A DNA stretch of 64,000 bases from Dipteris shenzhenensis (lineage: Eukaryota), in assembly GCA_047967505.1 (NCBI GenBank), contig CM106538.1; one strand, written 5' to 3'. Positions 4,491-56,207 of the stretch are shown piece after piece. Under the pieces are notes generated by a model. The model was not told the DNA's origin and made no database searches. It was given only the letters and a program-made list of their open reading frames with translations. The number at the start of each line of letters is the position of its first letter. Positions within the stretch are counted from its first letter, which is position 1. The position numbers and the translations under genes were made by a program.

Positions 4491-4552
4491 GCTTTTTTGG
4501 AATGGAAGGAGCTTTCATTCTGTTCGAGTCGGCCTCCTCACCTTGATTGGCG

Positions 4553-13370: not shown

Positions 13371-14274
13371 GCAGTATCACTATGACAAAAAAGTATGTTA
13401 CAAGAGGCGTCAATGGCGGTGTAGCCTTTCTCAACAGAATTGACGTCTTGCTGGTGTATAAAGCGAGATCCACTTTCATGGTCTAGCTCGGTAACCCCAA
13501 CCGCAAAAGCACTTAATGGCTCCTTGATCTCCCCTCAACAGCTACAATGCACCTGTGGTCTCCTCTCGGCTCATTCTCAGCTCAAATGTCCATCTTTGTC
13601 GAAGGTCTTCGGCTAACTCCTCCTATGGTACCAAGATTCCTCAGACCTCCCTTATCCCCTCTATCCTGAACTGATTAATGCCTTCACACAAATGGGAAAA
13701 ACTCTAGGAAATTGGACAATAGTGCCTTCATTATCATTCTCGCAAAGCTTTTTGAGTTCCTATCACAAGCTCCTCATGCCCAACTATGGTAAATCCCTCA
13801 AGCCATTTTACAAGGTCAATTGGCAAGATTGGGCCATAGTGGCATAGAAGGGCTAAGTGAAAGGATTGCTCCTCCTTGCCTCGTGTAAAATGGCTTGCCA
13901 ACAAAAAAAACCAATGACCAAGGAAGACCAAAAAATGGCACGAAAGACTAAACAACCGACACGAGTGGCACAATCAAGATGATTGGTAATGTTGGAATGG
14001 ACAAACAAAAAGTCAAAATTGCACTCAAACTCAAACTTGAAGCAAGATATGGCTTATGTCTAAGATCCCTTTACAAATAGCAATAGCAAAACAGCACATA
14101 CACCTTCATTTCTTTGCACCCTATTTGTGAAAATAGCAATTGCATCAACAGTTGATCATATCATATCATGACAAGATATCCATCAAAATGTTTTACAAAT
14201 CAATGCACCTTAGACTTTGAAACACATCCCTTTAAACCTTCTTCTTAACCACATTCAAAATGAAGTAGTTTTAC

Positions 14275-14342
14275 CTGTGTATGACATATATTGGATACAC
14301 AATTGATGCCGTGCTGATGATCGAGTGCATTGCAAACATAAT
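14275..14342 (-). CDS. DGAT1: DGAT1 coding exon 5
   Basis: tgcag|IMFAMHSIISTASIVYPIYVIH-AG|gtaaaa, 68 bp. It matches the plant DGAT1 segment of type VVIFLHIIIT...LYPVYV and its phase fits exon 4. Confidence 0.85.
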
Positions 14343-14508
14343 CTGCACATTGGCAACCGCATAAACGTTACAATATGACTTTTAGACGAATTACTATCCC
14401 ATATTTACAAACCTCCATGTTCTCATGTGGATACCCATGCATCCCAAGCCAAAAAGAAAATGTGCTCCCCCCCCCCCCCCCCCTCTCTCTCTCTCTCTCC
14501 CCCCCCCA

Positions 14509-15209
14509 TCGCATGTGCACATTGTGCGACTGTCAGGAGGTTGAGTTGAAGGAGCATTTTATTTTCAGGTGCCCAGTGTACTACGAGATCCGAGGTCGCT
14601 ACCACTGTCTCTTCAGAGACGGCTTCAGGCCCCTTTCCAGATTCCTCGCCTACCCAGATCAGAGATGCCTCGCGACCTTCATTCACGAGGGGGTCCGACA
14701 CAAAGAGTACTTACTCAGGCGACAAGGCTTGCCCACACCACCAGACACCTCTCAGAGCAAGATCACAGAGTTCTTCCCATCGAGTGATATTGATCGTCCA
14801 GTCTCTAGCCACAGACATGACAAAGACCCCGACCTAACAACCGCAGCACGACACATGAGGCATCGAGGGGACAGATCAATCTGGGGGGACCTTCCATCAT
14901 TGTTTAGACCCAGGACACGTCCCACGGGAGTCATGGTGGCTCTGATCTTGCGTCGAGCCTCCTCCAGGAGACCGAGACGCATGACACCCCTTGACAAACA
15001 CCAACGTCCCATCACCAACTACGCATCAGCCAGGGCGACATGACATACGGAGGATTCCGCTCCGCTCCGCTCCGCTCCAGTCTTTTTCCTTTTCATTGTC
15101 ACACCCAGATGAATTTGACTATGTATGATCAGACTTAGGACTCAGCACGGGTGATGATGCTCGTTTAGTAGCTCCACCCTTACTGTGGTTTGTATCAGGT
15201 TTTCTTTCC
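14509..15209 (+). mobile_element. 5'-truncated RTEX/L2-like LINE (ORF2 C-terminal zinc finger and 3' UTR)
   Basis: RMCTLCDCQEVELKEHFIFRCPVYYEIRGRY starts directly after the Cn(CT)nCn tract at 14467-14507. The 3' UTR resembles 31105-31155. Confidence 0.8.
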
Positions 15210-16649
15210 GCTGCCTCCTAGCAGCCTACACCACCTCCCCTAGCCTCTCCGCCTCTCAGCCTCTAGCCTCTCCGCCTCAGCCCCTATCCCTAGCCCCTAG
15301 CCCCCAGTCCCTAGCCCCGCCTCCCTAGCCTAGCCTGCTGTGCAACCTCCCTTAGCCCCACCTCTCAGCCTCAAGCCTCGCCTCAGCCCCTCACCTCTCC
15401 ACCTCAGCCCCACCCCCAACCCCTAGCCCCGCCTTCCTACTGTTGCGCCACCTCCTTTTTAGATTAGGGTTAAAAAGAAAAGACCAGCATGACGACACGG
15501 AGCTATGTTAAGGCTCTCGAAAGTGCAATGCAAGTGTACATGGCAGAAAGACCCCCAAAGAATACCTCCGAGGTATTGACCTTAGCAAAATTTGTTTGGC
15601 CTTGATCGAAAAGGTCGATAGCCTCGAGACCACTAATGTAGCATTGATGGCAGAAAAGACACATATTGACAAGACCTTGAATGAAATCAAGAAGCAAGGG
15701 GGGAGTATGCAAGAAGAATGGCGAAAAGGAGAAAGGGAAGAAGGATGAATGGGAAAGGGAGAAAGAGGCATGGGAAGATGAGAAGGTCAACCTCAAGGAC
15801 AAAATGTAGGCCATGGGGACAGAATTACAGCAATTGAGAGATATGCAGGGAGTACTAGAAAGTACGTGCAAAGCAATGGAAGAGATGAGAGCCGAGAATG
15901 AGATGCTTAAGAAGGAGATGGCAGCGCTACAAACAACCATACAAGGGAAGCATGCTGAGTTCACACAGCAAATCACTAAAGGTAACGCAAACATACTAGA
16001 ATGGAAGAATGTGGTTAAGAAGGGTACGGCAGCCCCCAAGAAAGAGATCATCTCTGAAGCCCTGGAGGAAGAGAAAAGGAGCAGCAGCAAGGCATTGAAT
16101 GTCCTGGTCAGAGGCCTAACAGTTGGAGACACCCCTATGTCCGATGCTACGACCTTGTTCACCAAAATGGGAGTCAACCTCACATGCAAGACAGCATGGA
16201 GGGTTGGTAAAGCTGAAGCTCCAACAAGACCACTCGTAATGAAATTACGAACAGCTATGGACAGGTCCACTCTCGTGAGCATGAGGGCAACCCTGAAAGG
16301 GACCATAATATTTTTGGATGACGATCTCACGCTGTTGCAGCAGGAGCATCGGAGAGAAGGGATGGTACGAGTTATGGCAGCAAGAGAGGCAGGGAAATGG
16401 GCTGCCTACAGAGATGGCAAAGTGATTATTCAAGAAAGAGTCAACAAAGGAGACAAGGGAGAAGGGGAGAAAGGGGAGAAAGAAGAGGGTGAACTATGAC
16501 GGTGCCAGAGCTCGGAGAAGAGTGCACAAAACAAGCTGAGTATGGCACAAAACAAGCTGAGTATGGCTGTATGGAACTGTAATGGCACACTTTGGTCCGA
16601 CCCAGGTGGCTTCTCGGAGACATACACACGCAGAGACATCATTTTCTAC

Positions 16650-17638
16650 ATCCCTCCCTTAGATGTATGCTCTAGTGAGCTGAATAACTTCCTGCAAGAG
16701 TAATGTACTTGCTAGCACCACTATCAAAGAACCAAGCATCATGAACATCAGAAATTGCCATGCAGGCATCATGAACATCAGGATTATACTAACATGTAAC
16801 CAAGAAATCTTAATGTTGGTCTTGTGCAAAATTAGTTGACTCATGTCGATCTTCTATACTATGAGAACCAGATACTGCAAGACTAGACTCTTTCTTCTTC
16901 TTTTCAGATGCAATTCTCTTCCTGCATTCAGAGATATCATGCCCAGGTTTTCTACAATAGTTACATCTCGTCTTCTTTTTGTTATCCCCTAAAGAAGAGG
17001 CACCATGAGAATGATCAGCATGTGAATGAAGGGGTATTCCTATGGGCTTCAGCTATTCAATGAAGGATGGGTGGGATTGGGTCCTAGACCGGGTCAAAAG
17101 CAAGGTGAATAGATGGCAAGGCCTGTAGCCAACATTAGCAAGACATAAATTTGTCTTTAACCACTACATTTATCCCTCCATCATTTACGTCATTTCCTGT
17201 TGGTACCAAACAAAGAAATTCCTTAGACAACTCAATAGCTTATTTAGAACCTTTCTGCGGGGAGGGGATTCAATCAATCACAAGGTTCCCAATTAGGAAA
17301 ATTTTAGGAAAAAGAAGAAAAAATTAGGAAAGTTTTGGAAACCATCATGAGGTCAGCGTGCCAAACGAGTGTGGAGGGCCAAGGAAACCTAGTTCTAGGT
17401 CGTGGTCCCAACTAGCCCCCTATCCTATTCCCAGGCTAATCGGCCAAGACATGGAGAGAGGAGTATTTTTACCTCTTCTCAATCCACTGTTAGTGGAAAA
17501 TAAAACTGGCAGTTGACATATATTTTGGGGTTGTAGTACTACCACCGATAGTTTGAAGATTACCACCGGTAGAGCAAAACTAATCATCAAAGGCCTCTAG
17601 CTTGACTTTGAAGATTTCATCTTGTTGTTCTTCCAACA
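16650..17638 (-). mobile_element. Truncated Copia remnant (LTR-like start and protease motif) inside the LINE endonuclease
   Basis: Minus strand starts TGTTGGAAG at 17638. HDAWFFDSGASKYIT protease motif near 16700-16745. The LINE frame resumes on both sides. Confidence 0.65.
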
Positions 17639-19147
17639 CATGAGAGCCTAGAGGGAGGGCTGCCCACAGTGATAGGATACACCTGGGAGTTTGCTCATAG
17701 GAAAGAAATGAGGAGAGACAGTGGGGTACGAGGCTCTGGAGGTGTAGCTGTCCTTTTCAAAACACACTTGAGGCCACTCATATCTATGGTATGGAGAGAG
17801 GAACATGCACATCACATGTGGATACGAGTGCAGCCACTAGATGCCCGACCTATCTTCATTGCAGTATGCTATTTCCCTCCGCACACGTCATCATATGCCC
17901 ATGATGTCACTACAAAGGGGCACAGCCCTTATGAGACGATACATGAGGATATCATAGAGTTCTCCAGACAAGGAGACACCCTCCTTCTGGGGGATTTCAA
18001 TGCAAGGACAAGGGACAAGCAAGTGGGCTTACTTGACTTCACATATGAGAGAGATCCCCACATGATGCCAAAGTTAGATGCACAGAACTTGGGACTCAGA
18101 GACTCTCTGCAGATACTTCGCATGTGATAGCATACGGGCAACACTTGCTTGAGTTGGGAGCTGTCCACGACCTCATCATCTACAATGGCCTTCAGAGATG
18201 GCCATCATCTGAGGGATTCACATGCTTCCCACATGGAGGTGGGACTAGCACAGTGGACTACCTACTGGGCCCACTGGCTTTTGTCTCACGGATACATGAC
18301 CTCACCATACCCCCCCCCCCCCAACTTGGAGCTGACCACTCATACCTGGCCTTCGATGTTCTTGTTACTACACCAAGCACAGGGAGAGTTCCTACCGCTA
18401 CCCGTACCCAAATCCACTTTGATCGTGCTCTTGATCCAGTGTATGTGTGCCACTTAGCCAGAGAGCTTCTGGCCTTATTGGAGCTGATCTAGACCTCGCT
18501 CATGCCTCAGCTACCCTTTTCACAGTGATACAGGATGCTACCACCAGATCCTTTCCTACAACCCAATCTTCGCGGATACGAGATGGGAAGATGCCTCAGA
18601 ACCCCTGGTTTGATGATCAGCGCACAGAGCTGCAAGCCCACCTCACACGGGAGCGAGCCTTGGGTCAGTTGACGCCACACGAGGCACACAGGATATTTCA
18701 ACGGCTAACACGCCGCAAGAGACGAGCCTTCATCACACATAGGATGGATGAGATCATCATATCATTTCACGGAGGAGACCCAACCACTAGGTGGGGATTC
18801 CTCGCGGAGGGAAAGACACCCATCCCCGAGGAGTATCTCATGCACTGAGGATTGCCATTGGTCAGATGCGGGTTTCATCCCATCAATTGAGGATTGAGGC
18901 AGGGAGAGCAGCGGGTATACCTGAAGAGCAGTAGATATGCACGCTATGTACGCTGGGCGCGGTTGAGACAGAGGAGCATTTCCTTTGTGTTTGCCCAGCC
19001 TACTATGAGATTCGAGGACGCTACCACTGTCTCTACCTAGAGGGGAATGGCTTCAGTCCTTTGTCATGACTGATCCATTTCCATGACCAGATCTGTATCG
19101 GACTCTATCTGATGGAGATGCGGCGACATAGGGAGACACTTCTAGGC

Positions 19148-19529
19148 TACATGGGAATTGGTGCCTTTGCCTACAGACAAGTATGCAATTGGCTGCAAGT
19201 GGGTTTATAAGGTGAAGCAGAATGCAGATGGCTGTGTGAACAGATTCAAGGCAAGATTAGTTGTCAAGGGTATGCATAGACATATGGAGTTGATTATGAA
19301 GAAACATTCAGTCTAGTTGTAAGGATGGCAACCGTAAGAGCAGTCATTACTATGGCTGCATCAAAAGGGATGGTCTTTACATCGGATGGATGTAAAAAAT
19401 GCCTTCTTGCATGGTGATTTGGAAGAAGAGATCTATATGGAGCAGCCACCAGGATATGTTCATGCTATTCATCCTGCATCTCTTTGCCAGTTGAAGAAAG
19501 CCTTGTATGGCTTGAAGCAAGCACCCAGA
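19148..19529 (+). mobile_element. LTR-less Copia reverse-transcriptase fragment
   Basis: TWELVPLP...[10 protein letters not shown]...[43 protein letters not shown]. Confidence 0.9.
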
Positions 19530-20194
19530 GAGAGCAACAAGGGTTAGTCAGACCACTACAGGACATAGAGGGTGACTGGGCACAGCGGCACGTCACAGAC
19601 TTCTATACATTTGAGTCAGCCCCCGGACATAGTGGAGTGGAGGAAGAGGAGCTAGCCGATATGAGAGCAATCTAGATGAGCAGCCGGCACAGTACCGTCG
19701 AGAGAGGGACGCAAAGGCCACATGTGCGATAGAGAGCCCCAGAGCCCAGAGTACACTCTATTGAGGTCCGACCTATCACAGCTTTCCTCAGAGGAGACCG
19801 ACAGAGACGAGGGATTACTCTAGACATAGCCTAGAGAGTCCAAAGAGCGAGGATACTGGGCCCCCCGCCACAGCTCGAGACAACTCAACAGACACAGATA
19901 CGATATATTTTCGCAGCCCACCAGAGAGCCATCACTGTACCAGGCTTCGGTTTCGTCCCAGCGCCTGGATAGATTGATTGATATGATATGATAATGATTA
20001 TGTTTATGATTATGTTTATGATTATGATTCTGTTAGCATAGATTAGTACTCAGCAAGCGTCCTAGCATACCCTTTGCTTCAGCCCACTAAGGCTTGTATG
20101 AGTTCGCTTTTCTCTGCACTTTGTCCCATAGGCCCGCGAGGTCTCCCGTGGACATTAATATATCTTTCTTTCTTTCTTTCTTTCTCTCTCTCTC

Positions 20195-23100
20195 CGCCAA
20201 AAACCTACCACACAATCATGGTGAGCAGCCTAATGGCCAAGCTGTATGGCACAATTCTTGAGCGAAAATTCAGTAAATGCATGGAGGCACAGGGGTTTAG
20301 GGTACCATCCTAGGCAGGGTTTCATCCCAAACACTCGACAATAGACCCTTTGGTCGCCATAAGGGCTACACAGAAGGAGCCAAGCATGAAAAAGAGGCTT
20401 GCTTTGTAGATTTCAAGAAAGCCTTTGGGTTTCACGCAAGAAACTATGGGAAAGATTAAAACAGCTTCAAGTCCCTCACAAACTCAAAGAGGCTACATAC
20501 CCTCTATACCATACATGATACCCTCTATACGGGAAAATATTCGCCGAGCTAGCACAACCACTTGTGGATGGGGTAATGCTCCAAAGGGAAAGCCGTCATA
20601 AGCAGTGACCAAAGGGGTCAAACAAGGCTGTCCCCTCTTGCCAACTCTGCTCTACTAATGCTTATTTACGCAGATGACTAGTCTTCTTCGCAAAAGCAAG
20701 CTGAAGCAAGCCAAAAATGAAAGCACATTCGAATGCACTAGGGGACCTCTATAGACACTCAGGAATGCAAGTCAACATAGCCAAAACAAAAGTCATGGTC
20801 TTTGGGACTCACAATAAACAAATTGATGTCACTTTCGAAGGGGAGCCCTTGGAGACAGTCAACTCATACAGATATCTATAGCTGGAATTTACCGACAACT
20901 ACAAATAAAATACATGTGTAGAAAGAAGAACCCTAGGCAATTTGAAAGCTCTGTACAGCTTCCAAAATAAATACAGGAAGGGAAGTGAGAAAGTTTCTAT
21001 ACATTGTGCTTGTAGGAACAGTGATCCTTTATGGGTGTCTAGCATGGGCTCCTGGGCTCTCTAGGACCTACTCGGAAAAGAATAGGAAATTGGGGGTTAG
21101 GCTTTGACACCCTACCCCATCCTCCTGGCTAAGACGGCTATGATACCTCTTGAAGGGGAGGCATTATGCCAATTCATGGCTCACCTCTGTAGGCTAGAGC
21201 AAGCAAAATGGAAGCTCAAAAATGAGTGGAGAAGGAGAAAAACGAGCTGTTGTAATGCAAATTCTACTACAATGAATGAAGACTCAAGAGGGAGCCGATA
21301 TGACAAAACCCTAGGGCTAAATGTCCTAACTGGACTAAGTGTTCTAATTGTCCTATGTGGTTAATGTACTAATTGTACCAACTGACCTAACTGACTGTAA
21401 CTAGGCCTACAAGGCACATACCAAGGAATGAGTGGCACCTATGGATAGCCCATAGAATGGCCTAAAAACCCCCCTCCATGGTATGAAGTATCCTAGGCAT
21501 GGCTCAGGATACCTGAATATCTAATGTCATGGTTGCACATGTTCATCCTATAGGGATATAGCAACCTATGATTATACAGAGTACAACACATCAAGTCACA
21601 AAAGATAGTAAGTTTAAAGGTTCCCGGAAAGCTTCAAACTTAGGTCGAGGTTGAGCCTTCGTAAAAAGATTTGCCAAGTTGTCTTCAGTGGGAACATAAG
21701 ACAACTGAATATCACTTGCTGATAATCTCTCTCTAACATAGTGATAGTGAACCTCGATATGCTTTGTGCAAGCATGGAAAATGGGAGTCCGTGCAACAGC
21801 CAAAGCACTCTGACTATCAGTGAAGATGACGGTAGGAGCAATCTGACATGCACAAAGATCTACATGTAACTTCCAAAGCCAAACACACTCCAGTGACGCT
21901 GTAAAAGCTGCTCTGTACTTAGCTTCACAGCTAGAAGTAGCAACCGTAATCTACTTTCTGCTGAACCAAGAAATGCATGAAGTACCAAGCATGAAACAGT
22001 TGCCACTATGCGACACAATCAGTATCAGTGAATCCATGTATAACAAATGAAGAATCAGCCTCATAAAGAAGGGCCAAATGCTGAGTGACTTTGAGATACC
22101 TGAAGACACGCTTTACGGCATGCCAATGGTGCCTAGAGGGACTATGCACATATCTGCTCAACTGTAAGGCAGCATATTGAAGATTAAGTCTCGTATGGCA
22201 TAAGTAAATCAAGCAACCAACTGCCTAGTGAGAGAGTGACATCACATGCACCGCTGCCATCCTCAGAAGAGAAGTGAAAACCAAGCTCCAATGGTGTGGA
22301 TATTGGCTGGCAATCCTCAAACTGAAAACGCTGCAAAAGCTGTCCAATATACTTGGATTGTGACATTTTGTTTGCAAGACATTCTATGGGCTGTCCATAC
22401 GTGCCACTCATTCCTTGGTATGTGCCTCGTAGGCCTAGTTACAGTCAATTAGGTCAGAGTATACAGTTAGTACATGTACCACATAGGGCAGTTAGAACAC
22501 TTAGTCCAGTTAGGGCATTTAGCCCTAGGGTTTTGTCATATTGGCTCCCTCTTGAGCCTCCATCCATTGTAGCAGCATTTTCATTACAGCAGCTCGTTTT
22601 TCTCCTTCTCCACTCATTTTTTAGCTTCTATTTCGCTTGCCCTAGCCAACAACCTCAACAAAGTTGAGAAGATGAACACTAGTAGGATACCTCACAAGGC
22701 CTTGGAAGCTACACAAACCAATGGAAGGCACCAAGAAAGGATGAAATGGATAGAATTATGGGGTACAACAGCTCCTGACATACCAGAGGGTGCATGTGAT
22801 ATCACAGGGTTAGTGACACAGAAGATGCGAACAAATTATGGCAAGACCTACGGGCAAAAATGCAATTCTACAAACAAGAAATTAACCCAATGAGAAGCAA
22901 TGGGATAAATACATTGGGGAAGGCATGTCAATGTTTAAAAGGCATCTAATATGCAAAAGGTGAACCAACTCACATGAACTGAAAGTGAAAAAGGAAGGTG
23001 GGTAATACCTAGGGTTCCAAGGGAAGAAAGAATATGCAAAATCTGCCCCACAGGGGAGGTGGAAAATGCAAAGCACATACTCCTAAGTTGTCGGGCCTAA

Positions 23101-23290
23101 GCACACACATTAGATAAAGAACAACAAAGGCAAACTGAAAAATCTATCAGATCAGCCACTACAAAGCTAGGAAGTTATCTAAAATAAGTTTTGGAACACC
23201 AAAACAACAAGGTACTTGGACTAGCACACAAGCTAGCTCAACAAGTACTAGCTACATAGTAAGCCTGCTACCAGATGTAAAAGATCAGAT
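20195..23290 (+). mobile_element. 5'-truncated, degenerate RTEX/L2-like LINE (RT to C-terminus), interrupted at 21188-22651
   Basis: TIMVSSLMAKLY, FVDFKKAF, GVKQGCPL and LIYADD. It begins right after a (TC)n tract. Confidence 0.8.
21188..22651. mobile_element. Copia derivative with two complete 279-bp LTRs in inverted orientation, flanked by TSD ACCTC
   Basis: 21188-21466 is the reverse complement of 22373-22651. Between them lie a minus-strand RT end, RNase H (TKHIEVHYHYVRE) and PPT. ACCTC occurs at 21183-21187 and 22652-22656. Confidence 0.85.
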
Positions 23291-23399
23291 CACCAGTCCC
23301 ATAGATCCTAAAGGGTCTCCACAAGATCTAAATACAATGATATCATCCCAACATTGATGGAAGGATGATGATGATGATGAAGAGGTAGCAACTAACATT

Positions 23400-24082
23400 A
23401 AACATTCCACAGGACATGCTACCATCACTCTCAAGTCACGTACACTACGAACCTAGATTCTCCGCCGATCACATAAGTTGAAAGGGACAAAGGTGTGGAT
23501 AGCTGAGGAGCTGACACGAGCTCAACTGAAGAACAAAGCGACTGAATATGCATTTGAGTCCGCTACCAATGTGGCTGAGGAAAAGGAGCTTGATGAGATG
23601 AGAGCATCATGGATCAGCAGTAGGAGTGTCCACCACGATGCGGCCAGACGAGGGGGACACACTCCACGTTCGACACGGAGAGAGACGAGCACACAGGATC
23701 AAGGTCCAATCTATCTCATCCCTTCTAAGAGGCGACCGTCAAAGACGAGGCATCACCCTTGATGTAGCCCACCGGATCGAGTAATCGAGGAGACCACGCC
23801 CTCCCCCACGTCACGAGATAGCTCGACAGACACAGATACAAGAGCTTCTCACATCTCATCAAAGTGCCACCAGGTTACCTGGATATATGGAACCTGAGCA
23901 TATACTAGGAGTGCTAGCCTGGAGTGCTAGCCTTGAGCACCTGACACTCTTCTGTTACTTCGCTACTCTAGTTTTTAGCAAGGGTCTTAGTGAACCCTTT
24001 GCTTCATCCCTCAGTGGTTTGTATGAGGTACCTTTTAGATTCACACTTTGTCTCAGAGGCCCGCAAGGCCTCTCTCTCTCTC
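23400..24082 (+). mobile_element. Chimeric LINE fragment: ORF1 C-terminal piece joined to an ORF2 tail and 3' UTR
   Basis: KLKGTKVWIAEELT (compare ORF1 near 33050) runs into YAFESA...ELDEMRA (compare 19605-19670). It ends in a partial hairpin plus (TC)n. Confidence 0.6.
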
Positions 24083-24714
24083 TCATGGCAGGAGGCATGG
24101 TCGATGGCCATGACTTCCATCATTTCTTTGGATCACAGACCCCTTAGGGAAGACGATGTTCCTCATATTTCATATTTTACATTTTGTATCTAGGCATTTT
24201 TGGTACTCTATTTCATTTCATTTTGTATCTAGGATTTTTGTAGCCATTTTTGGCATCTTAGCTGTATTACGATGAGGCCACCTAGTTGGCGCATCGTTGA
24301 TGATGTATTTTCCTTTCGGATGATTTTGTGTCCCATAGGCCATGTATGGCCTTCCGTGGACCTTTAATAAAATTTCTTTCTTTCTTTCTCTCTCTCTCTC
24401 TCTCTCTCTCTCATGGCAGGAGGCATGGTCGATGGCCATGACTTCCATCATTTCTTTGGATCACAGACCCCTTAGGGAAGACGATGTTCCTCATATTTCA
24501 TATTTTACATTTTGTATCTAGGCATTTTTGGTACTCTATTTCATTTCATTTTGTATCTAGGATTTTTGTAGCCATTTTTGGCATCTTAGCTGTATTACGA
24601 TGAGGCCACCTAGTTGGCGCATCGTTGATGATGTATTTTCCTTTCGGATGATTTTGTGTCCCATAGGCCATGTATGGCCTTCCGTGGACCTTTAATAAAA
24701 TTTCTTTCTTTCTT

Positions 24715-24755
<41 letters not shown>
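24083..24755 (+). repeat. Two near-identical tandem copies (period 328 bp) of a LINE 3' end with stem-loop and microsatellite tail
   Basis: CATGGCAGGAGGCATGG...TTTAATAAAA(TTTC)n(TC)n occurs twice. Hairpins at 24330-24361 and 24658-24689. Confidence 0.95.
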
Positions 24756-24758
<3 letters not shown>

Positions 24759-27700
24759 TGTGCCGGCAGCTCCTCACTGCCCCCGTTCATAGCTTCGTGC
24801 TCGTTCTCGTGCTTTGCAACTCCTCGCTACCGACACATGATTCGCACAGCCCCTGCTCATATCAGCAAGTGATTGCGCGCATCAACAAGTGACTGGCACA
24901 ATCGCTGCCAGCACATGGTTCGCACGGCCCCTACGAATCTACCTCGCGACCCCCGTGTGTAGCCTCGAGACACCTGCGTGTAGCAGCAAGTGAGACACTA
25001 CATCTCGTCCTCACCCCTACGCTCAACCCTGGATACATCTGCGCAGCATCACATTCAGTCTTCAAAGACACGTACGAGACCTCACGTCCAGCCTCAGAGA
25101 CAATCGTGTGACCCCCGTGTGCAACCTCGAGACACCTATGTGACATCACAATCAACCTCAGAGACACCTACGCGACCCCACGCCCAGCCTCAGAGACAAT
25201 CATGCGACCACCATGCCTACTCCTGAGACAACTGGACACCTGCTTGAGAACCAGTCCGACTACAATAATTCGTAAACTAAGAAACGTACCTAGCAGTCAT
25301 CAACGAACCTCTTCTTCGTCACCTGTGTGCAGTCGAGATTCCTGTGCCGAGGACAAGCATTTACATCCACACAGAACTTCAAGAAGCGCGGGAAACATGG
25401 GGTCATTTCAGACCCCTTTCAAGTTGAACAAACACCCAGGCCTAAATACTCCTTTTGGGAAAGTGTATGGCACCAAGAATAGCAAGAAAATGGACATGCT
25501 CATGAACATGTTCAGCGAGTTACAAGCTGAGAATTTCCAGCTCCAAAAAAATGTCATGCAACTCCAAAGAAGAGTGGATGCCCTCGAGAACATAGTGGAT
25601 AATGGATGCCAACAGATGCAAAAGTTTATGCAAACCACACCTGTCGAACGAGATGCAAAAGAATGTGCAAGAAGGGAAGAAGTGGACTGAAATAGTCTCC
25701 AAGAAAGATGCCAGTGCAGAACATGTTTAAGAGCCATCGGAATCAGCTCAAGTACCGCCACGTCCCTCAACCCCAAATCAAGAGGATGCCCATAAATAGA
25801 GAGAAAGAGATAAGAGGTCTTAGAACATTGTTATCCGTGGTCTACCGAAGATGGATAAGGAAACCCCTTTGGCTCTAGCCAAAGAGGTGACTGAATTTTT
25901 TTCAGAACACTTTGCAATGCCTGAAGTGACTGTATATGCAGCCCACCGCGTAGGGAAAGCACAAGAAGACAAGCCCAATAAAAGGGCTATCGTGTGCACT
26001 ATAGCAGATCCACGGAAAGGGGAGATTATCTTGGATAGCAGTAAAGTGTATCTCAAAGGCACACCTTTCTATGTCAGTGAAGACCGTACCCCCAAGCAGC
26101 AGGAAGTGCAAAGAAAACAATACACGGAAAGACTAATGAGACAAGGAAAGTTGCCCCAAACACAAGATGGGGGTCAAAATGCAAAATAGGGATTTGTGAC
26201 CCATGGGAAACGCAAATGCCTACAAGTCATGGTTTGCCTTGGCATAAAAGGGTAAGCATAAATGTCTTCATTCACGATGCAGACATCATCCTTTTAGGAG
26301 AGACTTGGGAAAGTGAAACATGCAAGATCCCAGAGACACCTGGATATGTGGTGCACTCAATATACCAAAGGCAAGTGGGGAAAAGAGGACAAGGAGGTGT
26401 TGCATGCATGGTACAAGAAAAAGTCAGCCTCCATAAAGTGGACAAATACAAAAGATACATGTGGCTGAAAATAGAGCTTGGTAAATGCCATGTCTTTCTT
26501 GCAGGCTGCTACATACCTCACCATGAGTCACCCTTTTACAACAGACACGGAGTGGACCCTAGTGATGCGTTTAAAGCACTATGTCTTGATATGGCTGAAC
26601 TCAGAGAAAAGGGTCAAGTCATAGTTATGGGAGACCTTAATGCAAGAATTGGTCACCTACAGTTTCAGCCCATCACACATGATGAAATGGATAAAGAATC
26701 AGTCATAGAAGTGGACAACATGTCGCAGAGAACATCCGAGGATGACGCCATCAACACACAAGGCAGAGCACTCAGATGCATGAATAATGGGCTGCACATG
26801 CCAGTCTTGAATGGAATGCAATTATTCCCCAACACCCACAAGATGACGTGTATCTCAGCTAGCGGAGGACAGAGTGTGCTAAATTATGCCTTAATACATG
26901 TGGACACTATACCTGTTATCAAAAGCTTCAACATAGGGATGAAATATCCGGAATCGGACCATCTCCCAATATGGTTGGATCTTGACATACACATTGAACA
27001 TAGGGAGCATAAATTTTCAGCACATGCAGGAGGTTTCAAAGTAGACCCAGACAAACACCAAGATTATGCAGACACTTTGGATGCAAAGCTGAGAACAATG
27101 ACCAGCCCTAGCTGGACAGCCCTGTGGGAAGCAATACTTGCCTCAGCCACACAAACCTTTGGAGCAGCATCTACAAGAAAAAAGAAACAGGTCAAAGGGT
27201 TACCACACAAGAAATGGTATGACGAGGAATGTAAACAACTGCGCAAAGAGCTGAAATACATACTGGATGCAGACAGGCATAAACAATTGGAGAAGACATA
27301 CATGCCCTCACAAGGAAAAAGAAAAGAAAATATATTCTAGAAAGAGAGAAATCTGATTTGATTACTTTCATAAAAAATCCAAGAAAAGGCTGGAAACAAG
27401 TGAAAGGTAGACGGAAATAGGTAACAGGGAATATATCAGATGCAACCATGCTAGATTATGTTACCAAGTTGTACAATCATGCACATGCCACTGAAATGGG
27501 GAAGGAGGATCTGTCGGTCACATGTACTTGTCCTTTTACCTTTGAAGACATTGAAGCTGGACTAAAGAAGATGGCTAATGGCAAAGCCTCAGATCACATG
27601 AAGATACAGGCTGAATTTGTGAAATGGACAGGAGACCGAGCAAGAACACGGCTCTCACATCCTAACATGTGCTCTACACCATGGTTTTCCTCAGGAATGG

Positions 27701-29556
27701 CAAGAAAATTGGGTCCAGCCTTTACACAAGGGTGGAGACAAAAATTCAGTCACAAATTACAGAACTATAATGGTCAGCTCTACATTGGCCAAGCTCTTCA
27801 GTATGGTGCTTGAAATGAAAATCAGCTCATGGGAAGAAGAGGCCCAGAAAAGGGCCACTGGACAAGCAGGCTTTTGCAAGGAGCACAGGACAGCCGACCA
27901 CCTTATTACCTTGAGAGTCCTCATGGATGAGTGCAGATTGAGGACGCACTTTATTTTGTTGCTTTGTGGATTTCAAGAAAGCATAGAGGACTATAGAAGA
28001 GAATGCAAGCAATAGGAGTCCCATTGGCCTTGAGAGTAGGCATCTCTCATATCTATGAAAAGGTATTATGCTGACTCAAACAAGCACAGGGTATGTCCGA
28101 TGTATTTGAGGTAATATGGGAGTTAAGCAAGGCTACCCTCTATCACCTACCTTGTTTGGAATATGCATTGATCAACTGGAGGAACTCATCAATGAATTTG
28201 CAACAAAGGAAGGGTTGCAAGGACCGCAATTGGGATTATGGACAGTGCTATTGTTGCTATACGCAGATGATGTAGGCTTTTTTGCATACGATCTGGACTC
28301 TATGCACAAACTTTTACAAGCGCTCAAGACTTTCTGTAGGGAAAGTGGGCTGCAAGTGAATGTCGGAAAAACAAAGATGATGGCAGTCTGTACCAATCAG
28401 CCAGAACATCCCCCTGAGATCACCTTTGATGGACAGATTATTGAGTATGTCAGCACCTTCAAATACTTAGGGGTTGATATCCCGGCAAATCACAGATGGT
28501 GGCAATGTATACACATAAGGATGGACACTGGCTGGGGGAAGTACTACCAGTTTGAGAATGACTACAGGCACACTGACACCAGGAACTGGAAAATTCAAAA
28601 TGTTTTGTTTGATGCATATGTAGTACAGACAGTATTATATGGAGTGGAAGTATGGGGAGGCATATTTCAGCCTCTACATGGAATGATATTGAGAAAATGC
28701 AAAAGACTTTCTTACAGCGACACCTTGGTGTCAAACCCACTACTCCATACTCAGTACTTCTGTTGGAAACAGGAAGGAGGCCGATTGAATTTCATGCACT
28801 GATCAGAGTTATGCAATACCTAATAGAGGTGCAGCAAATGCAACCTGATAGGTTGCCTCATAAAGCATGGAATGCCAGCACAAAGCTTCAAAAGAACCAC
28901 AAAAGTAAGATCATCTATACAGGATGGGCAACCGACATAAGAAAATGGTTCAGCAGATGGAAAGTGGAAGCATATTTGACCATGCAGCCTGAAAAGGTCA
29001 CCATGCAAGAGTTTCAACTGTCTTTACTGAGCACTTTGCAAACTCACTGGCTGACAAGTGAAAAGAAGGTAAAGCTGGAATATTACCAAGACAACATAAA
29101 TCCCACATGTTGGTCTACATACATGTCCATAGAGACTCATGCTCAGCCTTATATTAGCACACCTATCCCCCTTCTATATCGTAGAAACATAGCCAGGTTT
29201 CGTACCAAATCTCATACATTTGCAATTGAGAATGCATCAGCCCAGACATGCTAGAGTCTGTACCCTTTGTGACAGGCAGAGAGTTGAGACGGAGGCAAAT
29301 GTGGCTCTACAGTGCCCCCGATATGCACATATTAGGGAGGACTACCAACAAAACTGGAGGACTCCGCTCAGCTGACATCAGTTCTCTCTACCTCTCCGGC
29401 AGCATTGGGATCTTTTGTCACTCGTCTTTTTACCTGGCGTCAGGAACTCATAGACTCCTGACCCCTCTCCTTGAGGAGACTCTATTTTACATTGTATTGA
29501 GACGGGTCCTATGGGTCATTTTTGGCCCCCCGAGGACGTTAATAGACTCTACTTCT

Positions 29557-29590
<34 letters not shown>
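24756..29590 (+). mobile_element. Near full-length RTEX/L2-like LINE (ORF1 about 25396-26189; ORF2 about 26200-29400, frameshifted)
   Basis: ORF1 LKGTPFYVSEDRT. Endonuclease LGETW, GGVA, GDLNAR, SDH. RT QAGF, GVKQGYPLSP, LLYADD, FKYLG. 3' stem-loop at 29506-29537. (TC)n tracts on both sides. Confidence 0.9.
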
Positions 29591-29592
<2 letters not shown>

Positions 29593-29891
29593 AATAGGCA
29601 CATGTTCTTTTGACATGTCTGCGATATGAGCATCTAAGAGAAGATTTCAGCAATGTCACGCAGCATCACAACAGTTTGGAGAGCTTGCTTTCCCATCCTC
29701 ACCTCGCAGCCTTGGGCAATTACATTACCAAGGTCCTTGCATACCGTGACCAATGTATTACACAGGTAGCAACATGCTAGCTGTCCACTCCACCCTTCTT
29801 CAAAGAAGGAGACTTTTTGTAACATTCCATTGGGTCCCATGGGTCGATTTCAGGCCCCTAGAGGACGATAATAATAGTTTCTTTCTTTCTT

Positions 29892-29923
<32 letters not shown>

Positions 29924-29925
29924 CC
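29591..29925 (+). mobile_element. Short 5'-truncated LINE 3' end
   Basis: HVLLTCLRYEHLR zinc-finger remnant, stem-loop at 29834-29866, and (TTTC)n(TC)n tail. Confidence 0.75.
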
Positions 29926-31190
29926 CCTCTAGACTACCACTTATGGGTGCTCACAAAATCGGGGCTAATGTCAAGACTAATTTAAGGGTCTCATAGGATA
30001 ATTGGCATTGTTAGATGGGGCATTCCAGACTTTCACTTATCTATACAGAGTGCACGCATACGGCTCATGTACCACAGGGCAACACAGGCTACCTTGGCTG
30101 GCACTAGCATCTTCTATAGCACTAGCAACTCAAGGTGATCAAAGATGTTGGTACGCACACACATTCGGGTGGTTTGAGAGATTGGGTTTTCATATAGAGA
30201 GGCTGCCACCCTTCCAGTACAGCATTGACGCTCCGGAGATTCGTTTTGTTCCAAGGCAACGAATTCAACCCAATCATCCGCGAGGATCTCCTACAGCTAC
30301 ACACATTCAGGACATGGCTAGCATAAGGAGAGCTCCCTATGAAGCTCAGCTTCTATAGGGACCACTGCTTGCAAATTTCAGCAGAGGGTTTTATCATTCC
30401 ATCAAGATACACCCAGATCCACCTACCACATTCACTCAGGATTGCCATTACGTGTGTCATCACACCCAAGGAGAGCCGCATCTGCACATTATGTGAGCGC
30501 CATGAGGTGGAGCCAGAGGAGCACTTTCTTTTCCGTTGCCCAGTCTACTATGAGATTTGTGGACAATACCATTGCCTCTTTAGAGACCGGTTCGAGGGCC
30601 TCTCCATACTCCTCCTATACCCAGACCAGAGATGCCTGGTAGCTTTTATTCACGAGGCGGTCCGACATAGAGATCGTCTTATCAGATCGAGGAGACATGA
30701 ACAGAGCACAGAGTTCTTCCAGGCACAGCAGGTTGCTATCACGGTTAGCAGAAGAGGCAAAGACCCTAAGACCGAGATGTGACACACCATGCAGAGGACG
30801 AACACACAAATCACACTCACTAACATCTCCTCTCTCTTTAGGCATGGGAGGCAGCCGACTGAGCTTACAGTGGCGCTCGTTAGGACACGACAGGTTACTC
30901 ATCCAGATAGCAGACAACGATCCATTACTGGCTTCCTGCCAACACTGCCTAGTCTGCCCTCGAGTGTATCTTGATGTTCTATTTGCCTATTTTATTGTAT
31001 TGTATTGGATCAGACGGTGTCTCCACATGAGGATGATGATGCCAGGATGGTTGTTTACGTTTTTTGATAGACTATGTCTACATTGTTTTCTAGCATAGGT
31101 TAGGATGCTCGCTTAGTAGCACCACCCTTTTGCTAGCTGTATCAGGGTTTTCTTCAGTCTCATAGACCCATCGGTCTTTAGCATACTTTA

Positions 31191-31245
<55 letters not shown>
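29926..31245 (+). mobile_element. 5'-truncated RTEX/L2-like LINE (post-RT region, zinc finger, 3' UTR)
   Basis: RICTLCERHEVEPEEHFLFRCPVYYEI, variant stem-loop at 31157-31186, and (TC)n tail. Confidence 0.85.
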
Positions 31246-31248
<3 letters not shown>

Positions 31249-31546
31249 CCCCCCCCCCCATTGTGTGTTTCTCTCCGCTCATCCCCTCCGCCTCTCCGCT
31301 CATCCCCTCCGCCTCTCCGCTAGCCTCACTCGCTCAGCCCCTCTCGATAGCCTCTCCCGCTAGCCCCTCCCTCAGCCTCTCTCTCCCGCTAGCCCCTCCG
31401 CTCAGACTCTCCACCTCAGCCTCCCTCACCCGCTCAGCCTCCCCACCTCAGCCTCGCTCACCCACTCAGCCACCAACGCCGCCGCCACAACAGCAACCAG
31501 CAATCACCGCCACCAGAAGTCACCATCCGCCTCAACAAGGGACACG

Positions 31547-32328
31547 TAACCCCAGGGTTTGCGCTGAGCCCCAAATGTTACGAAAATTATATTTCTGATA
31601 TATCTTGCTTTGGACATTATTATTTTAGTCAAGTGTGACTATGGCAAAGTACTCCATAGGAGCGCACCGGACGCGGCGGGGGTCCTAGTGGATACTTTGT
31701 GTGGTTAGTTGGAATGCCTAACTAGCTTGTGTTTTGCCCTGCTAGATGGTCGGTATAGATGGTCGGTATTGTGGGTGATTCCATGTTAATACTGATGTCA
31801 CTAGTGTTATTGGTGTTGTGCTTGATTATTGTGCTTTGAGTGTGGTTATGTTGGGATCGGTTGATTCGGTACTAACTCCAATCCTCACTATGAGTTCCAT
31901 CACCTATACTCAAGCCGCCAATTACATTAGTTATTAACAATCGATTGAGGGTACCGATCGAGGTGTTGCACAGCACAATTTATATGGCCATGGGCCAATT
32001 TTGTATTTGCTTTATTATTGCAAGTTTGAGCAATATATTTTGTAATGGACATAATTCATTTTTGAGCCCTAAGATGGCTATGTAAAGCAAATCCCTCATT
32101 TTAGAAGAGAGGGATAATTTTGTCTCCTTGGTGCTTTTATGAAATATCATAAATACTCTAGATGAGGAAGCGGGAGCCATTCATCTAGGGGGGCGAGATT
32201 ATACCCAGTCTGCTGTCGCTTTCGTGGTGTGGTTGTGTTCTTCTTCTCCAATTGATTAAGTGGTGAATTTGTGTGGAAGATAATTATCTTTTGGTTTCAC
32301 CAAAACCCAACCCTGGGGGTTAATTACA
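31547..32328. repeat. Probable solo LTR (about 780 bp)
   Basis: Inverted ends TAACCCCAGGGTT and AACCCTGGGGGTTAATTACA. Imperfect TSD ACACG/GCACG. No coding potential. Confidence 0.55.
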
Positions 32329-32344
32329 GCACGGGGCGCCTGAA

Positions 32345-33223
32345 ATGATGCAGGCTACTGTGGATGGGGATGCCAAGACACCTGTGGCCTTCCCCAAGAT
32401 CAAGACACTCCTCTCGACCCCGACAAAAGCACTATATTCCTCCGTTGCAGCTCTCCCCTCGCCTCCCCCCTATGTGTAGGCAAAGACGCCGTCCCCATAT
32501 GCAAAGAACTATCTACAGCAAAAGAGAATGGTAAGCATGATAGACCTGCAAGAGCATATTTGTTACTTACAGCAGGAAATCCGTGAGCTCAAGCTCAAAC
32601 TTGCAGCTTTAGAGAGGAAAACAGATGCATGGGAAACACAAGGAAAACAGGAAATTATTCATGAAGTACTGCAGATATACAATACAGCAACACCCACACC
32701 ACAGATGGTGACTAAAGTCCAAGACCTGGTCACAAGTCAGCTCCAATCAGTAAAACAGGAAATTACAGCAACACTGGACACTAAAGTTAACACATTGGAT
32801 GTGTATGAAGAAGTACAAGAACAGGAAAAGAGGGTGGCTAATACACGACTCGTACACATAGGGGGGCTACCAGAGGGCTGGTTTGAAGGAACTCAAAAGG
32901 AAAAACTGGAAAATATCATGGAAAGAACCCCACAACTAGAATGGGATGCTGAAGACGTAATAGTTGTTTTACAGAAGGGGACACAAGCCAAAGTATACTT
33001 CCAGAACAAGATGAAAAGAAGCAAGATTCTTAAGCAAACCAATAAGCTGAAAGGCACTAAAATATGGATAGCGGAGGAGCTCACCCCAACTCAGCTCAAA
33101 ATGGAGGCCACTGAATTGGCTAAAGTGAAGGATGCTCGAAAGGAAGGAAAATGGGCTGTTTACAGAGATGGAAAAGCACTTATAAGAGACTTCAAATCCA
33201 AGCCTAAAGACTCTCAGTCTTAA
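32345..33223 (+). pseudogene. LINE ORF1-type protein (coiled coil plus RRM/CTD-like region) with one in-frame stop at 32477
   Basis: Homologous by eye to the ORF1 at 15813-16499 (LKGTKIWIAEELT; ARKEGKWAVYRDGKALI). Confidence 0.8.
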
Positions 33224-33401
33224 ACTGATGTAATGCAAGCCGATTATCATTGGTAGTAGACTATAGTAGACTATTGTTAACCTATAATAACTTTGTGAGT
33301 GCTATATGCACTCACGAGATTCTCAGTCTATAACAGATGTTTTGGTGTTCACCTTTTGGTGTGTGTTTGTCCCATAGGCTCGTGAGGTCTCCTGAGGACG
33401 T

Positions 33402-33458
<57 letters not shown>

Positions 33459-33505
33459 GGTTTTTCTTTAGTCTCATAGACGCATCGGTCTTTAGCATAC
33501 TTTAA

Positions 33506-33565
<60 letters not shown>

Positions 33566-33980
33566 AATCTGGCACACTCATGCACCCACACTGTATGACA
33601 TTCCTCACCAGCCGCTCCTGACCTCTCACACTCACCTCATTCTACTTCCTACACTCTTTTCACCAAGGGAAGTGTCAAAGATGCAACATTGAAGCTTCAT
33701 AATGGTCGAGCAAAAGATCATGAGGAACTATGCACTCAGTTTATTGCATATGGGATAAACACCCTAGCCTTGAAGCTCTTCAATGATGCAGTCTGTCTTG
33801 GCTTTCCACACACCTGGACACTTAACACCATCACACTCATTCACAAGGCAAGGGGATCCCATGAAACAAGAAAACTACAGGACCACCATGATTGGGCATG
33901 TCATGCCCCAGATATATGTATCAGTACTGGACACAAAGGTCAGCCGGTTCGCAAAGATGCAGGGACTCAGAGCAGAGGAT
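33566..33980 (+). mobile_element. RTEX/L2-like RT N-terminal fragment
   Basis: GFPHTW...ITLIHK and ENYRTTMIGH follow a (TC)n(AC)n tract. Confidence 0.65.
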
Positions 33981-34263
33981 TCAATGCTCTCCTTTACAAG
34001 TTATATAAATTCTCTTAAGGGATCTAATTCCGTAACATTATCATAGGTAATAAAGTATTGATTGTTTTTAGTGTGATTTGCACTGCCTTGCATTACTTTC
34101 TCTCACAAGAAGTTAGTTTCTGCTTAGAAGTTTTCCTAAACCATCCAATGTTTGTTTGTGTGAGAACGGTTTTTATATCATGTAAAATATTATTACAAAT
34201 ACAAGCATGTTTTGTCATTGCTATAGGCTTGACTCCTGAGGATCCCAAGAAAAAAAGCCTTAC

Positions 34264-34339
34264 CCATTCAGGAATGTCACAGTGTAATTTCCATTTTTCA
34301 ACTAAGTAAGAACTAAAAGGAAACCCTGGAAGACACAAC
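34264..34339 (-). CDS. DGAT1: DGAT1 coding exon 4
   Basis: tgcag|G-LCLPGFPFSSYLVEKWKLHCDIPEW|gtaagg, 76 bp. It completes the phase-2 codon of exon 3 and matches the LSLPxFP...VEK segment. Confidence 0.88.
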
Positions 34340-35799
34340 CTGCACAAGAAAGTCAATTAGAAGAATTAGAAGCAGCTACAAAAATGCCATCATAAAGTGT
34401 GCATAACACGAGAAAACATGATTGCCAACAATGCTAAAGCAATAATGCAAGTAAGGTCTGGTCTCCTATTAGTCCCTAGGTCCAGAGCCTAAAATAAACA
34501 AAATCATACTAACATCAACCCTCACTTTAAAACTGTGGAAATTTGCATTAAATTTAAAAGTAATTCTAGGGGAACATAATTTCCAGCCATCAATGTGATC
34601 AAGGGATATTCAAAATTCATGAGACCTTGACTTGTGAAGCAAGCCAGTACATATTCCAGCAATGTTGTAATTTGTCGACTCATCCATACTTCACATATCT
34701 ACATCCAGGAACATTTCTTCCCCCTTGAGAAAGAATTTTCTGACTACTCGAGTAGGCCATGCTACCTTTTTCAAGGCTTCAATAGGTTTTAACATACTTA
34801 AACTTCATATACATGTTTTTTATAATCTATAATTTCAAAATTCAAACCTTATATGGGTCCATATGACTTATGCCAATTGACTTGAGTACTTGGAGGGTCG
34901 GAGCTTGTATGAGAAATTTATGTTAATTTTTGGGCAAATTTATCAAATTTTGAGCTGAAAATCTTAGCCCAGGCAACTTGGAGAAGGCTTTCGATTCGCC
35001 ATTGGGCTATTATTGGCCCCTAATTTTTTCATTGCCTGCAAGCTTTAATATCTTCATACACAGCACTTAAGTCACCAATGAAGCCCAGGAGCAAACGAGC
35101 ATCCTCCCCCTTTGAACAACGCTTATAGGAAATGCCAAAAAGGCACCCTCCCTCAGGCATACCATAATTGGCTGCCATGCATCATGTCCCAAATGAGAGC
35201 TTCATTTTGATTTACATCCTTTGTCAAAGCATTTGAACCTTCAACCCCCTCATCATACACAATTGAAGTGCTCCTTCACTTTCTCACATTCAACCACATC
35301 ATCAACCCCCTTTTTCTCCTCCACTAAAGGTGAAGGCGACATAGTATCAACACAATTTATCACTAGAAAAATCAGTTTACACATCCTGCCATGTCACGAC
35401 ATTCAACCACATTTTGTAACTTCCATTCTTTCTTTTCACCAAAGAACAGTGCTTTACCAAAAGACATCTTCCCCTTCTTCAAAACATACCTTTGGAACTG
35501 CGGTAACAATGCATCCACAAAGCACTTATGCCACTTGAAAAACATGCTCCCCTCCTAACTGTTTTTTTTGTTGGGGAGTTCTTATACTTTCCATTGAGCA
35601 TCCTTGTTTAAGAATGTATACATTAGCAAACTTTTAAAAGTACCCAAGATAGAACCACTTCAGAGTTTACTGCTCTTCAAGCTTAACATTGAATGGAGTG
35701 AGAGGTCTGCTGCTCTGTCCCCCAGCCTGAAACTTGGGGCAGTTGCTGAATTTCTTCAAGTGATCATCCTTTTCTCAAGTGATCATCCTCCTAACTGCA

Positions 35800-50656: not shown

Positions 50657-50730
50657 CCGCACATGAGAATTGGCCATTCTCTAAGTGATTTGGAGCTGAA
50701 CCAAAAGCCAGCTTGTATAAGCAGTCCATA
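50657..50730 (-). CDS. DGAT1: DGAT1 coding exon 3
   Basis: cag|YGLLIQAGFWFSSKSLREWPILMC-GG|gtgagt, 74 bp. Confidence 0.95.

Positions 50731-56164: not shown

Positions 56165-56207
<43 letters not shown>

Follow-up and report, generated by a model that had tools for sequence, protein, structure and literature searches.

A stretch of 64,000 nucleotides from the contig CM106538.1 of Dipteris shenzhenensis (assembly GCA_047967505.1), referred to here as the window, encodes on its minus strand a part of the gene for diacylglycerol O-acyltransferase 1 (DGAT1). Intron 4 of this gene (14343-34263, 19,921 bp, with GT..AG ends) is occupied from 14465 to 33980 by a stack of 12 pieces of long interspersed nuclear elements (LINEs), all of them on the plus strand and hence antisense to DGAT1, and only ~405 bp of other intron sequence remains. 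Most pieces adjoin their neighbours within tracts of (TC)n or (TTTC)n(TC)n, and wherever a 3' end has been retained it shows a conserved hairpin with a short repeat tail behind it. We propose, at a probability of roughly 0.6, that insertion into TC tracts, one copy after another, has built the stack. A previous inspection of the letters without database searches (the sequence-only reading) had already described an intron 4 nearly filled by about ten antisense LINE pieces. These are all present and the current analysis raises the count to 12, as P3 consists of two pieces and a 328-bp unit (P4a and P4b) occurs twice; together they represent about 11 insertion events.

Anatomy and junctions of the stack

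The identity of the host gene rests on the minus strand open reading frame (ORF) at 50776-50925, which resembles many proteins named diacylglycerol O-acyltransferase 1, fern ones included; the named entries among the best 120 proteins listed are mostly diacylglycerol O-acyltransferase 1 or O-acyltransferase. Searches with other ORFs gave nothing for this gene, since no MBOAT domain has been assigned by Pfam to the minus strand ORFs left of 14.4 kb and no DGAT1 match has been obtained from PDB with two DGAT1 exon ORFs. The MBOAT-domain exons fall outside the window. The DGAT1 of Ceratopteris (P0087) is aligned by tblastn to five consecutive minus strand exons (~52119, 50925, 50742, 34346-34264 and 14342-14274), and the conserved N-terminal membrane region of plant DGAT1 is encoded by these exons in order. 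A contig of the sequencing run X3 places window 14313-14342 immediately before 34264, and window 50664 onward, where the next exon upstream of exon 4 begins, immediately behind 34346. The RNA label of this run is the guess of a tool and the contig is referred to as transcript-like only. The sequencing runs contain at most 0.15 of the sampled words, and the parts that they leave uncovered are not taken as evidence.

The organisation of the stack is given in Table 1. A full-length relative of the elements, P0001 (1106 aa), has 15 tblastn matches between 14.5 and 34 kb, and all 15 are on the plus strand. Endonuclease domains (Exo_endo_phos) have been assigned by Pfam to window ORFs at 17612-18127 and 26081-27340 and a reverse transcriptase domain (RVT_1) at 28110-28802. 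P1 is without its last ~40 bp and its tail, while P4a and P4b each carry the hairpin and a (TTTC)4-5(TC)12-17 tail. The Copia and long terminal repeat inserts mentioned in the sequence-only reading are two in number, and both are derived from Copia. The insert in P2 resembles 42746-43148, which is part of a Copia pol ORF; contigs of the runs X2 and X3 pass directly from 19144 to 19529, and a peak of depth is seen there. The insert in P3a, which itself has no Pfam match, resembles a degraded Copia element at 36.3-39.6 kb that has an RVT_2 domain. The spacer of 1.1 kb between the P2 ORF1 and endonuclease also contains a multi-copy repeat of ~375 bp (16656-17040), represented by separate X2 and X3 contigs.

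Table 1. Features of the LINE stack in intron 4 and of the flanking DGAT1 exons (window positions; UTR, untranslated region; RT, reverse transcriptase; EN, endonuclease)
Feature	Position	Strand	Description
DGAT1 exon 5	14274-14342	-	P0087 residues 150-172; tblastn 57% identity over 23 aa
Left boundary tract	14465-14507	+	CT-C17-(CT)8-C9; unique intron DNA on one side, P1 on the other
P1	14508-15212	+	5'-truncated; ORF2 C-terminal CCHC domain and 3'UTR; P7 family (69% aa)
P2	15213-20195	+	Near full-length at 5' end; C-rich repeat 5'UTR; RT deleted
P2 ORF1	15810-16499	+	
P2 EN	17660-18420	+	
P2 CCHC	18833-19135	+	
Copia RT-like insert	19145-19528	+	Within P2 3'UTR; very high-copy sequence
P2 hairpin	20123	+	
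P2 tail	20163-20195	+	(TCTT)5(TC)6
P3a	20196-23385	+	5'-truncated, start at ~RT residue 523; CCHC 23014-23100; hairpin 23296
P3a RT insert	21188-22651		272-bp inverted arms (90% identity) flanking a minus strand Copia pol C-terminal fragment
P3a tail	23338-23385	+	(GAT)n-like
P3b	23390-24084	+	5'-truncated, ORF1-only type; ORF1 C-terminal remnant; P2-like 3'UTR; shortened hairpin; tail (CT)7
P4a and P4b	24085-24757	+	328-bp 3'-end unit, twice, 99.7% identity; tandem duplication
P5	24758-29592	+	Full-length; 5'UTR with 32-bp repeats; ORF1 to 26189; hairpin 29506; tail (TC)15
P5 ORF2	26231-29443	+	EN, RT, CCHC; several frameshifts
P6	29593-29930	+	Last 60 ORF2 codons, 83% identical to P0001; hairpin 29834; tail (TTTC)5(TC)13C5TCT
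P7	29931-31259	+	5'-truncated ORF2 C-terminus and 3'UTR; hairpin variant 31157; tail (TC)26C14
P8	31260-33454	+	ORF1-only; C-rich repeat 5'UTR; intact ORF1 32480-33223; hairpin 33369; tail (TC)25
P9	33455-33548	+	Last 55 bp of P7 family (51/54 bases identical) and (CT)19
P10	33549-33980	+	(CA)9, then RT N-terminal fragment of a diverged relative (E 4e-4); no 3' end or tail
DGAT1 exon 4	34264-34346	-	P0087 residues 123-148; X3 contig loose ends at 34264 and 34346

All ten of the TC-type tracts claimed in the sequence-only reading have been located. Besides the left boundary tract and the tail of P2 they comprise 24069-24084, 24373-24412, 24701-24757, 29558-29592, 29878-29930, 31195-31259, 33405-33454 and 33510-33548. 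Piece-to-piece junctions lie in (TC)n or (TTTC)n(TC)n tracts in 9 of 11 cases, in agreement with the claim that most pieces begin at a TC tract and end in a new one, and the outer left junction also has a (CT)8. The tracts amount to ~431 bp, or 2.2% of intron 4, and yet they hold 8 of the 10 junctions when the duplicated unit is counted once; chance is therefore excluded for the junction pattern. The two junctions without a TC tract are P1|P2, which has no tract of any kind, and P3a|P3b, which has the tail of P3a. Each piece with a retained 3' end closes in the family hairpin and a tail, and it is there that the next piece starts. No hairpin-type piece breaks into the body of another.

Behind each of the (TTTC)4-5 tails of P2, P4a, P4b and P6 (four tails, from three events) lies a (TC)6-17 repeat. 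In the relatives L004, L012 and L072, whose flanks are readable, unique DNA and not (TC)n directly adjoins the (TTTC)n tail, and L017 stops at the end of its contig. This comparison of sequences suggests that the (TC)n behind the (TTTC)n tails of the stack may be the leftover of the target. Other copies of the P1 family carry on with hairpin sequence exactly where P1 stops (loose end of an X2 contig at 15208), as would be expected if a target-site deletion had occurred at P1|P2.

At three junctions (14467-14507, 29919-29923 and 31247-31259), 5 to 17 consecutive C residues separate the TC tract from the start of the following piece. They may represent an untemplated addition or a part of the target.

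Two other explanations of parts of the array have been considered and rejected. The same-family 3' end occurs twice before a similar C-rich 5'UTR, which raised a segmental duplication of P1 and P2 as P7 and P8; it is rejected because the two ORF1s are only 22% identical, while P1 and P7 share 75% of their nucleotides. Reading P9 as a long target-site duplication of P8 would require the primer to be nicked outside TC sequence, and the repeat and the unique part do not follow each other as expected of target-primed insertion.

The TC-tailed elements and their shared 3' hairpin

The 3' ends share the motif GTC(C/T)CAT(A/G)G.., a short loop, a complementary arm and ..TTAATA, after which the tail begins. 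Ten such 3' ends are present in the window, nine whole and one cut short, all on the plus strand and all inside intron 4; no hairpin-type LINE copy is found in the remaining 44 kb. The earlier claim that these elements occur nowhere else in the window is thus valid for the hairpin-type LINEs, and has to be qualified by an unrelated plant L1 LINE at ~3.8-10.6 kb, which is also on the plus strand. In an alignment of 14 sequences with nine base pairs, 91.3% of the cells are paired, compared with 25-49% when the partners are slid. Four pairs have changed on both sides, giving 12 compensatory cells, and the observed values are reached in none of 500 shuffles. A hairpin conserved by compensatory changes and placed directly before a tandem-repeat tail is the layout of the stringent-type LINEs of other clades (PMC3747384, in its available part). 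No Rfam family has been matched in the window.

Six metagenome relatives that carry different tails also have this hairpin; measured over the best segment, their ORF2 is from 27% (L017) to 55% (L012) identical to that of P0001. Their tails differ by subfamily, being (AATTC)-like in L001, (CAAAT)6 in L002 and (TTTC)n in L004, L012, L017 and L072; across all subfamilies the units are (GTAA)n, (CAAAT)n, (AATTC)n, (TTTC)n and (TC)n. More distant relatives most often have a (GTAA)4-7 tail: of the 46 loci at which the match extends to the ORF2 C-terminus, 15 show it, and the others have different repeat units or none seen. Since the (GTAA)-tailed relatives stand singly, without stacks, in 25 long loci, stacking appears from these sequences to go with the TC-tailed lineage and not to be general to the clade.

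Two of the relatives show repeats or groupings of their own. The (CAAAT)6 tail of L002 (4540-4600) is followed by (CT)3(CA)7 and more dinucleotide repeats, which recalls the (CT)19(CA)9 at the right end of the stack. L012, a metagenome contig of another organism, has two hairpin 3' ends and a reverse transcriptase piece on one strand within 5 kb (1868-5075), and two units of ~60 bp, each closing in (CT)n, lie directly after its first (TCTT)6 tail. This co-oriented cluster has been rejected as a second stack, being looser and having its second hairpin followed by unique DNA, and is recorded as an anecdote only.

The TC-tailed elements comprise an APE endonuclease, a reverse transcriptase, a C-terminal CCHC motif (CX2CX8-10HX4C) and an L1-type ORF1. 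The endonuclease is N-terminal to the reverse transcriptase in ORF2, as is characteristic of APE-type LINEs; Exo_endo_phos and RVT_1 have also been assigned by Pfam to the full-length relatives P0001 and P0002, and the endonuclease, reverse transcriptase and C-terminus of P5 are aligned in order to P0001 by tblastn. Columns of the catalytic region of the endonuclease are invariant across 11 full-length relatives. The copies have a common 3' end and are truncated at the 5' end to various extents, starting at ORF2 residues ~523, 860, 1030 and 1047 or with a full 5'UTR, and P8 and P3b are derivatives with ORF1 only. The RRM domain of the L1 ORF1p is the best solved match in PDB (E 1.3e-4) to a profile built from ten ORF1s. 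The ORF1 type does not settle the clade, for which the sequence-only reading had put forward a tentative RTEX/L2-like label, because L1-type ORF1s are known from the L1, CR1, L2 and R1 clades according to the available part of PMC4120745.

Comparison of ORF2 with solved proteins aligns the reverse transcriptase core only, for which R2 (1e-22) is a better match than the human L1 ORF2p (E 1e-14). No zf-RVT domain is matched at E<=1 in the ORF2 of P0001 and P0002, and no esterase has been found by Pfam in these two proteins. The true plant L1 of the window has zf-RVT, and its reverse transcriptase is ~23% identical to those of the TC-tailed elements. As zf-RVT is lacking and only the reverse transcriptase core aligns to L1, below R2, sequence comparison places the TC-tailed elements apart from plant L1 and outside the L1/Tx1 clade. 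The fern Adiantum nelumboides is the source of the named proteins that are closest to those of the LINEs, and a search of the ESM Atlas with the endonuclease ORF gave generic endonuclease clusters only.

The C-terminal domains of the pieces are 18-69% identical, which corresponds to at least five diverged families and bears out the earlier impression of several distinct ones. Little similarity is found by blastn between the pieces, save for P1 and P7 (75%), P7 and P9, and P4a and P4b (99.7%). A segmental duplication of one family, named in the sequence-only reading as a refuting case, is consequently excluded except for the two 328-bp units of P4. The families are multi-copy in four sequencing runs, and contig depth climbs toward the 3' end of P5 in run X1.

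Proposed growth of the stack and competing explanations

From the anatomy, the shared hairpin, the diversity of families and the pattern of junctions described above, TC tracts would be the preferred target of these elements. About 11 separate events of target-primed reverse transcription of one LINE lineage, with several families active over time, would have produced the stack. The RNA of the element would end in the conserved hairpin and a microsatellite tail, mostly (UC)n or (UUUC)n here, and new copies would enter existing (TC)n.(GA)n tracts, the first one into a small tract of the intron and later ones into the tails of earlier copies. As the primer must be the (GA)n strand, every copy would take the orientation of the tract. 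Each insertion would make two tracts from one, resulting in a one-way and self-reinforcing stack. Afterwards, a target-site deletion would have affected P1|P2, a tandem duplication between TC tracts would have given rise to P4a and P4b, and Copia sequences would have inserted twice. The preference for TC could stem from the endonuclease, from annealing of the tail to the primer or from fragility of the tract. The proposal of the sequence-only reading that TC repeats are targeted and that tails become targets is in this way supported at the locus, by the separate copies, the junctions at which a tail meets the start of the next piece and the (TTTC)n tails followed by (TC)n.

Several observations weigh against this course of events. 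The evidence comes from a single locus, and contigs are cut at repeats, so that they neither bridge nor break any junction. P1|P2 is without a tract, the C runs at three 5' junctions are without explanation, and annealing of a UC tail cannot account for the position of P3a, given its (GAT)n-like tail. A (GA)19 at 56167-56204, which is (TC)19 on the minus strand, has no hairpin-type LINE beside it, and the relative L001 lies in ordinary DNA at both ends. The antisense orientation could reflect selection, as sense copies would introduce polypyrimidine tracts of (UC)n into the pre-mRNA, and the unrelated L1 in intron 5 is likewise antisense. The neighbouring introns are equally large: intron 3 (34347-50663) has 16.3 kb and intron 5 more than 14 kb, between them they consist of Copia, Ty3 and L1 elements, a TC-tailed LINE being absent from either, and the size of intron 4 is unexceptional among them. 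The notion of runaway intron growth in the sequence-only reading is weakened by this comparison.

The same tracts could have selected the site without the help of the endonuclease. Fragile (TC)n.(GA)n mirror repeats may break, and LINE complementary DNAs may be primed at the breaks. The presence of P3a at a TC tract despite its non-TC tail is in keeping with such capture, as are the untidy junctions, reminiscent of break repair, at P1|P2 with its target-site deletion and at P3b, whose hairpin is truncated. The endonuclease domain is nevertheless conserved in the 11 full-length relatives and in the Pfam matches, and one (TC)19 tract of the window has received no insertion; we regard this explanation as rather unlikely. 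Template jumping by LINE reverse transcriptases is known from R2 and L1, and several head-to-tail pieces might have been deposited in one or few events if the reverse transcriptase, at the 5' end of a LINE RNA or while still within it, had moved to the tail of a different one. The same tail-to-5'-end junctions and the same orientation would be expected, and the very short pieces (P9 with 55 bp and P6 with ~285 bp) look like aborted copies. Eleven pieces of at least five families, however, show unequal decay, with an intact ORF1 in P8, the reverse transcriptase lost from P2 and 75% nucleotide identity between P1 and P7, and the (TC)n behind the (TTTC)n tails is better read as a split target. 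Template switching is therefore unlikely as the origin of the stack.

The antisense bias of intronic LINEs is well known, and no targeting at all would be needed if a permissive intron had received LINEs by chance, the antisense ones had survived and unequal exchange between TC tails had tidied the array. The neighbouring introns of 16 kb and more than 14 kb are also filled with transposons, and the duplicate P4a and P4b indicates that exchange between TC tracts does occur. Random insertions would nonetheless nest in the bodies of other elements and in both orientations, whereas no hairpin-type piece interrupts another, 9 of 11 junctions are in tracts that constitute 2.2% of the intron, and the families are absent from the other 44 kb; this explanation is quite improbable. 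We consider it very improbable that false joins at TC repeats have chained unrelated LINE copies during assembly. Every join is of low complexity and no contig has been shown to span one, but the stack is situated between consecutive DGAT1 exons joined in the transcript-like contig, the tracts are just 16-65 bp and the orientation is uniform.

An extended form of the proposal, in which TC-directed insertion reflects a distinct lineage, is put forward tentatively and is on balance doubtful. Such a lineage of land-plant LINEs, falling outside both the L1/Tx1 and the R1 clade, might have a true (TC)n.(GA)n specificity and grow one-way arrays, which could enlarge an intron about twenty-fold without stopping its splicing and would add to the gigantism of fern introns and genomes. 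The specificity might be set by the protein or by the structure of the tract rather than by tail annealing, as the (GAT)n-tailed member is also in a TC tract, and the lineage might make its own targets because most members leave a TC tail.

If the TC preference is true, the elements would exemplify, in a plant and in a new LINE lineage, retrotransposition that is directed to microsatellites. The rule that the tail is the target predicts clustered and strand-locked growth, and one way in which introns of large fern genomes may become very long can thereby be tested. The elements could also serve as a natural system to distinguish the endonuclease, primer annealing and DNA structure as the determinant of LINE target choice, and the 3' hairpin covariance model from this analysis offers a handle for gathering all copies from a genome.

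Known microsatellite-associated elements and other features of the window

The original work behind the microsatellite LINEs of Kibi and Koshi type is reportedly that of Kojima and Fujiwara in 2004. The available part of PMC3812793 describes Kibi in (TC)n and Koshi in (TTC)n, both of the Tx1 group in fish, together with Waldo in (ACAY)n, Mino in (AC)n and Dong in (TAA)n. The elements of the stack resemble this group, as far as it is described there, in being APE-type LINEs (Dong excepted) inside one kind of microsatellite, which is TC in Kibi as well, and in having the repeat on both flanks, so that target-site duplications are invisible. They differ in their fern-like land plant host, an ORF2 that is not L1/Tx1-like, the lack of zf-RVT and the presence of a conserved 3' hairpin, and a possible Kibi-like specificity is indicated here by one locus only. 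Stringent-type LINEs such as the eel UnaL2 have a 3' stem-loop and a repeat tail, (TGTAA)n in UnaL2, and in the part available of the same source (PMC3747384) they are not reported to pile up in their own tails, unlike what is proposed for the elements of the stack. The compensatory-conserved hairpin followed by a short tandem repeat is a feature common to both.

Zepp of Chlorella is grouped with the non-LTR tandems that result from repeated insertion. The Drosophila R1 and telomeric elements form tail-to-internal and head-to-tail tandems through repeated insertion at one site, according to the accessible portion of 10.1101/158386. Compared with these tandems as described there, the array in DGAT1 contains at least five families, has a dinucleotide at its joints and is situated in the intron of a spliced gene and not in ribosomal DNA or at a telomere. 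Penelope-like elements of the green lineage have an insertion bias for (CA)n, (C)n and (TA)n and multicopy head-to-tail insertions (PMC8557442, in its available part). A preference of plant and algal retroelements for microsatellites and the head-to-tail multicopy arrangement would be common to both, but Penelope-like elements in that account combine a GIY-YIG endonuclease with a telomerase-like reverse transcriptase, in contrast to the APE endonuclease and LINE reverse transcriptase of the stack. In the portion of the literature covered, judged by titles and abstract openings, we found no fern or other plant LINE with microsatellite targeting. Microsatellite-associated, tail-invading LINEs are known already from the partial sources cited here, and the elements of the stack would be a further case, in a plant.

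The plant L1-clade LINE in DGAT1 intron 5 (~3800-10600, plus strand, antisense to the gene) has no TC repeat associated with it. It has C-rich tandem repeats of 41 bp at 3937-4314, an ORF1 with DUF4283 and zf-CCHC domains, an endonuclease, a reverse transcriptase and zf-RVT, and ends in an A15 tail at 10566-10580. The start of the window (1-1758, minus strand) is occupied by an open frame of 586 aa with a Ty3-type gag, an aspartyl protease and the start of a reverse transcriptase, which runs off the window. Intron 3 of DGAT1 contains a near-intact Copia element (40058-44212, plus strand) with gag, integrase and RVT_2 in two long ORFs, and the degraded Copia element (36300-39600, minus strand) lies there on the opposite strand to it. 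A tandem repeat of ~540 bp with 90% identity is present at 46071-47535, and a (GT)28 tract at 61319-61375 is followed by three TTAGGG units at 61505-61522.

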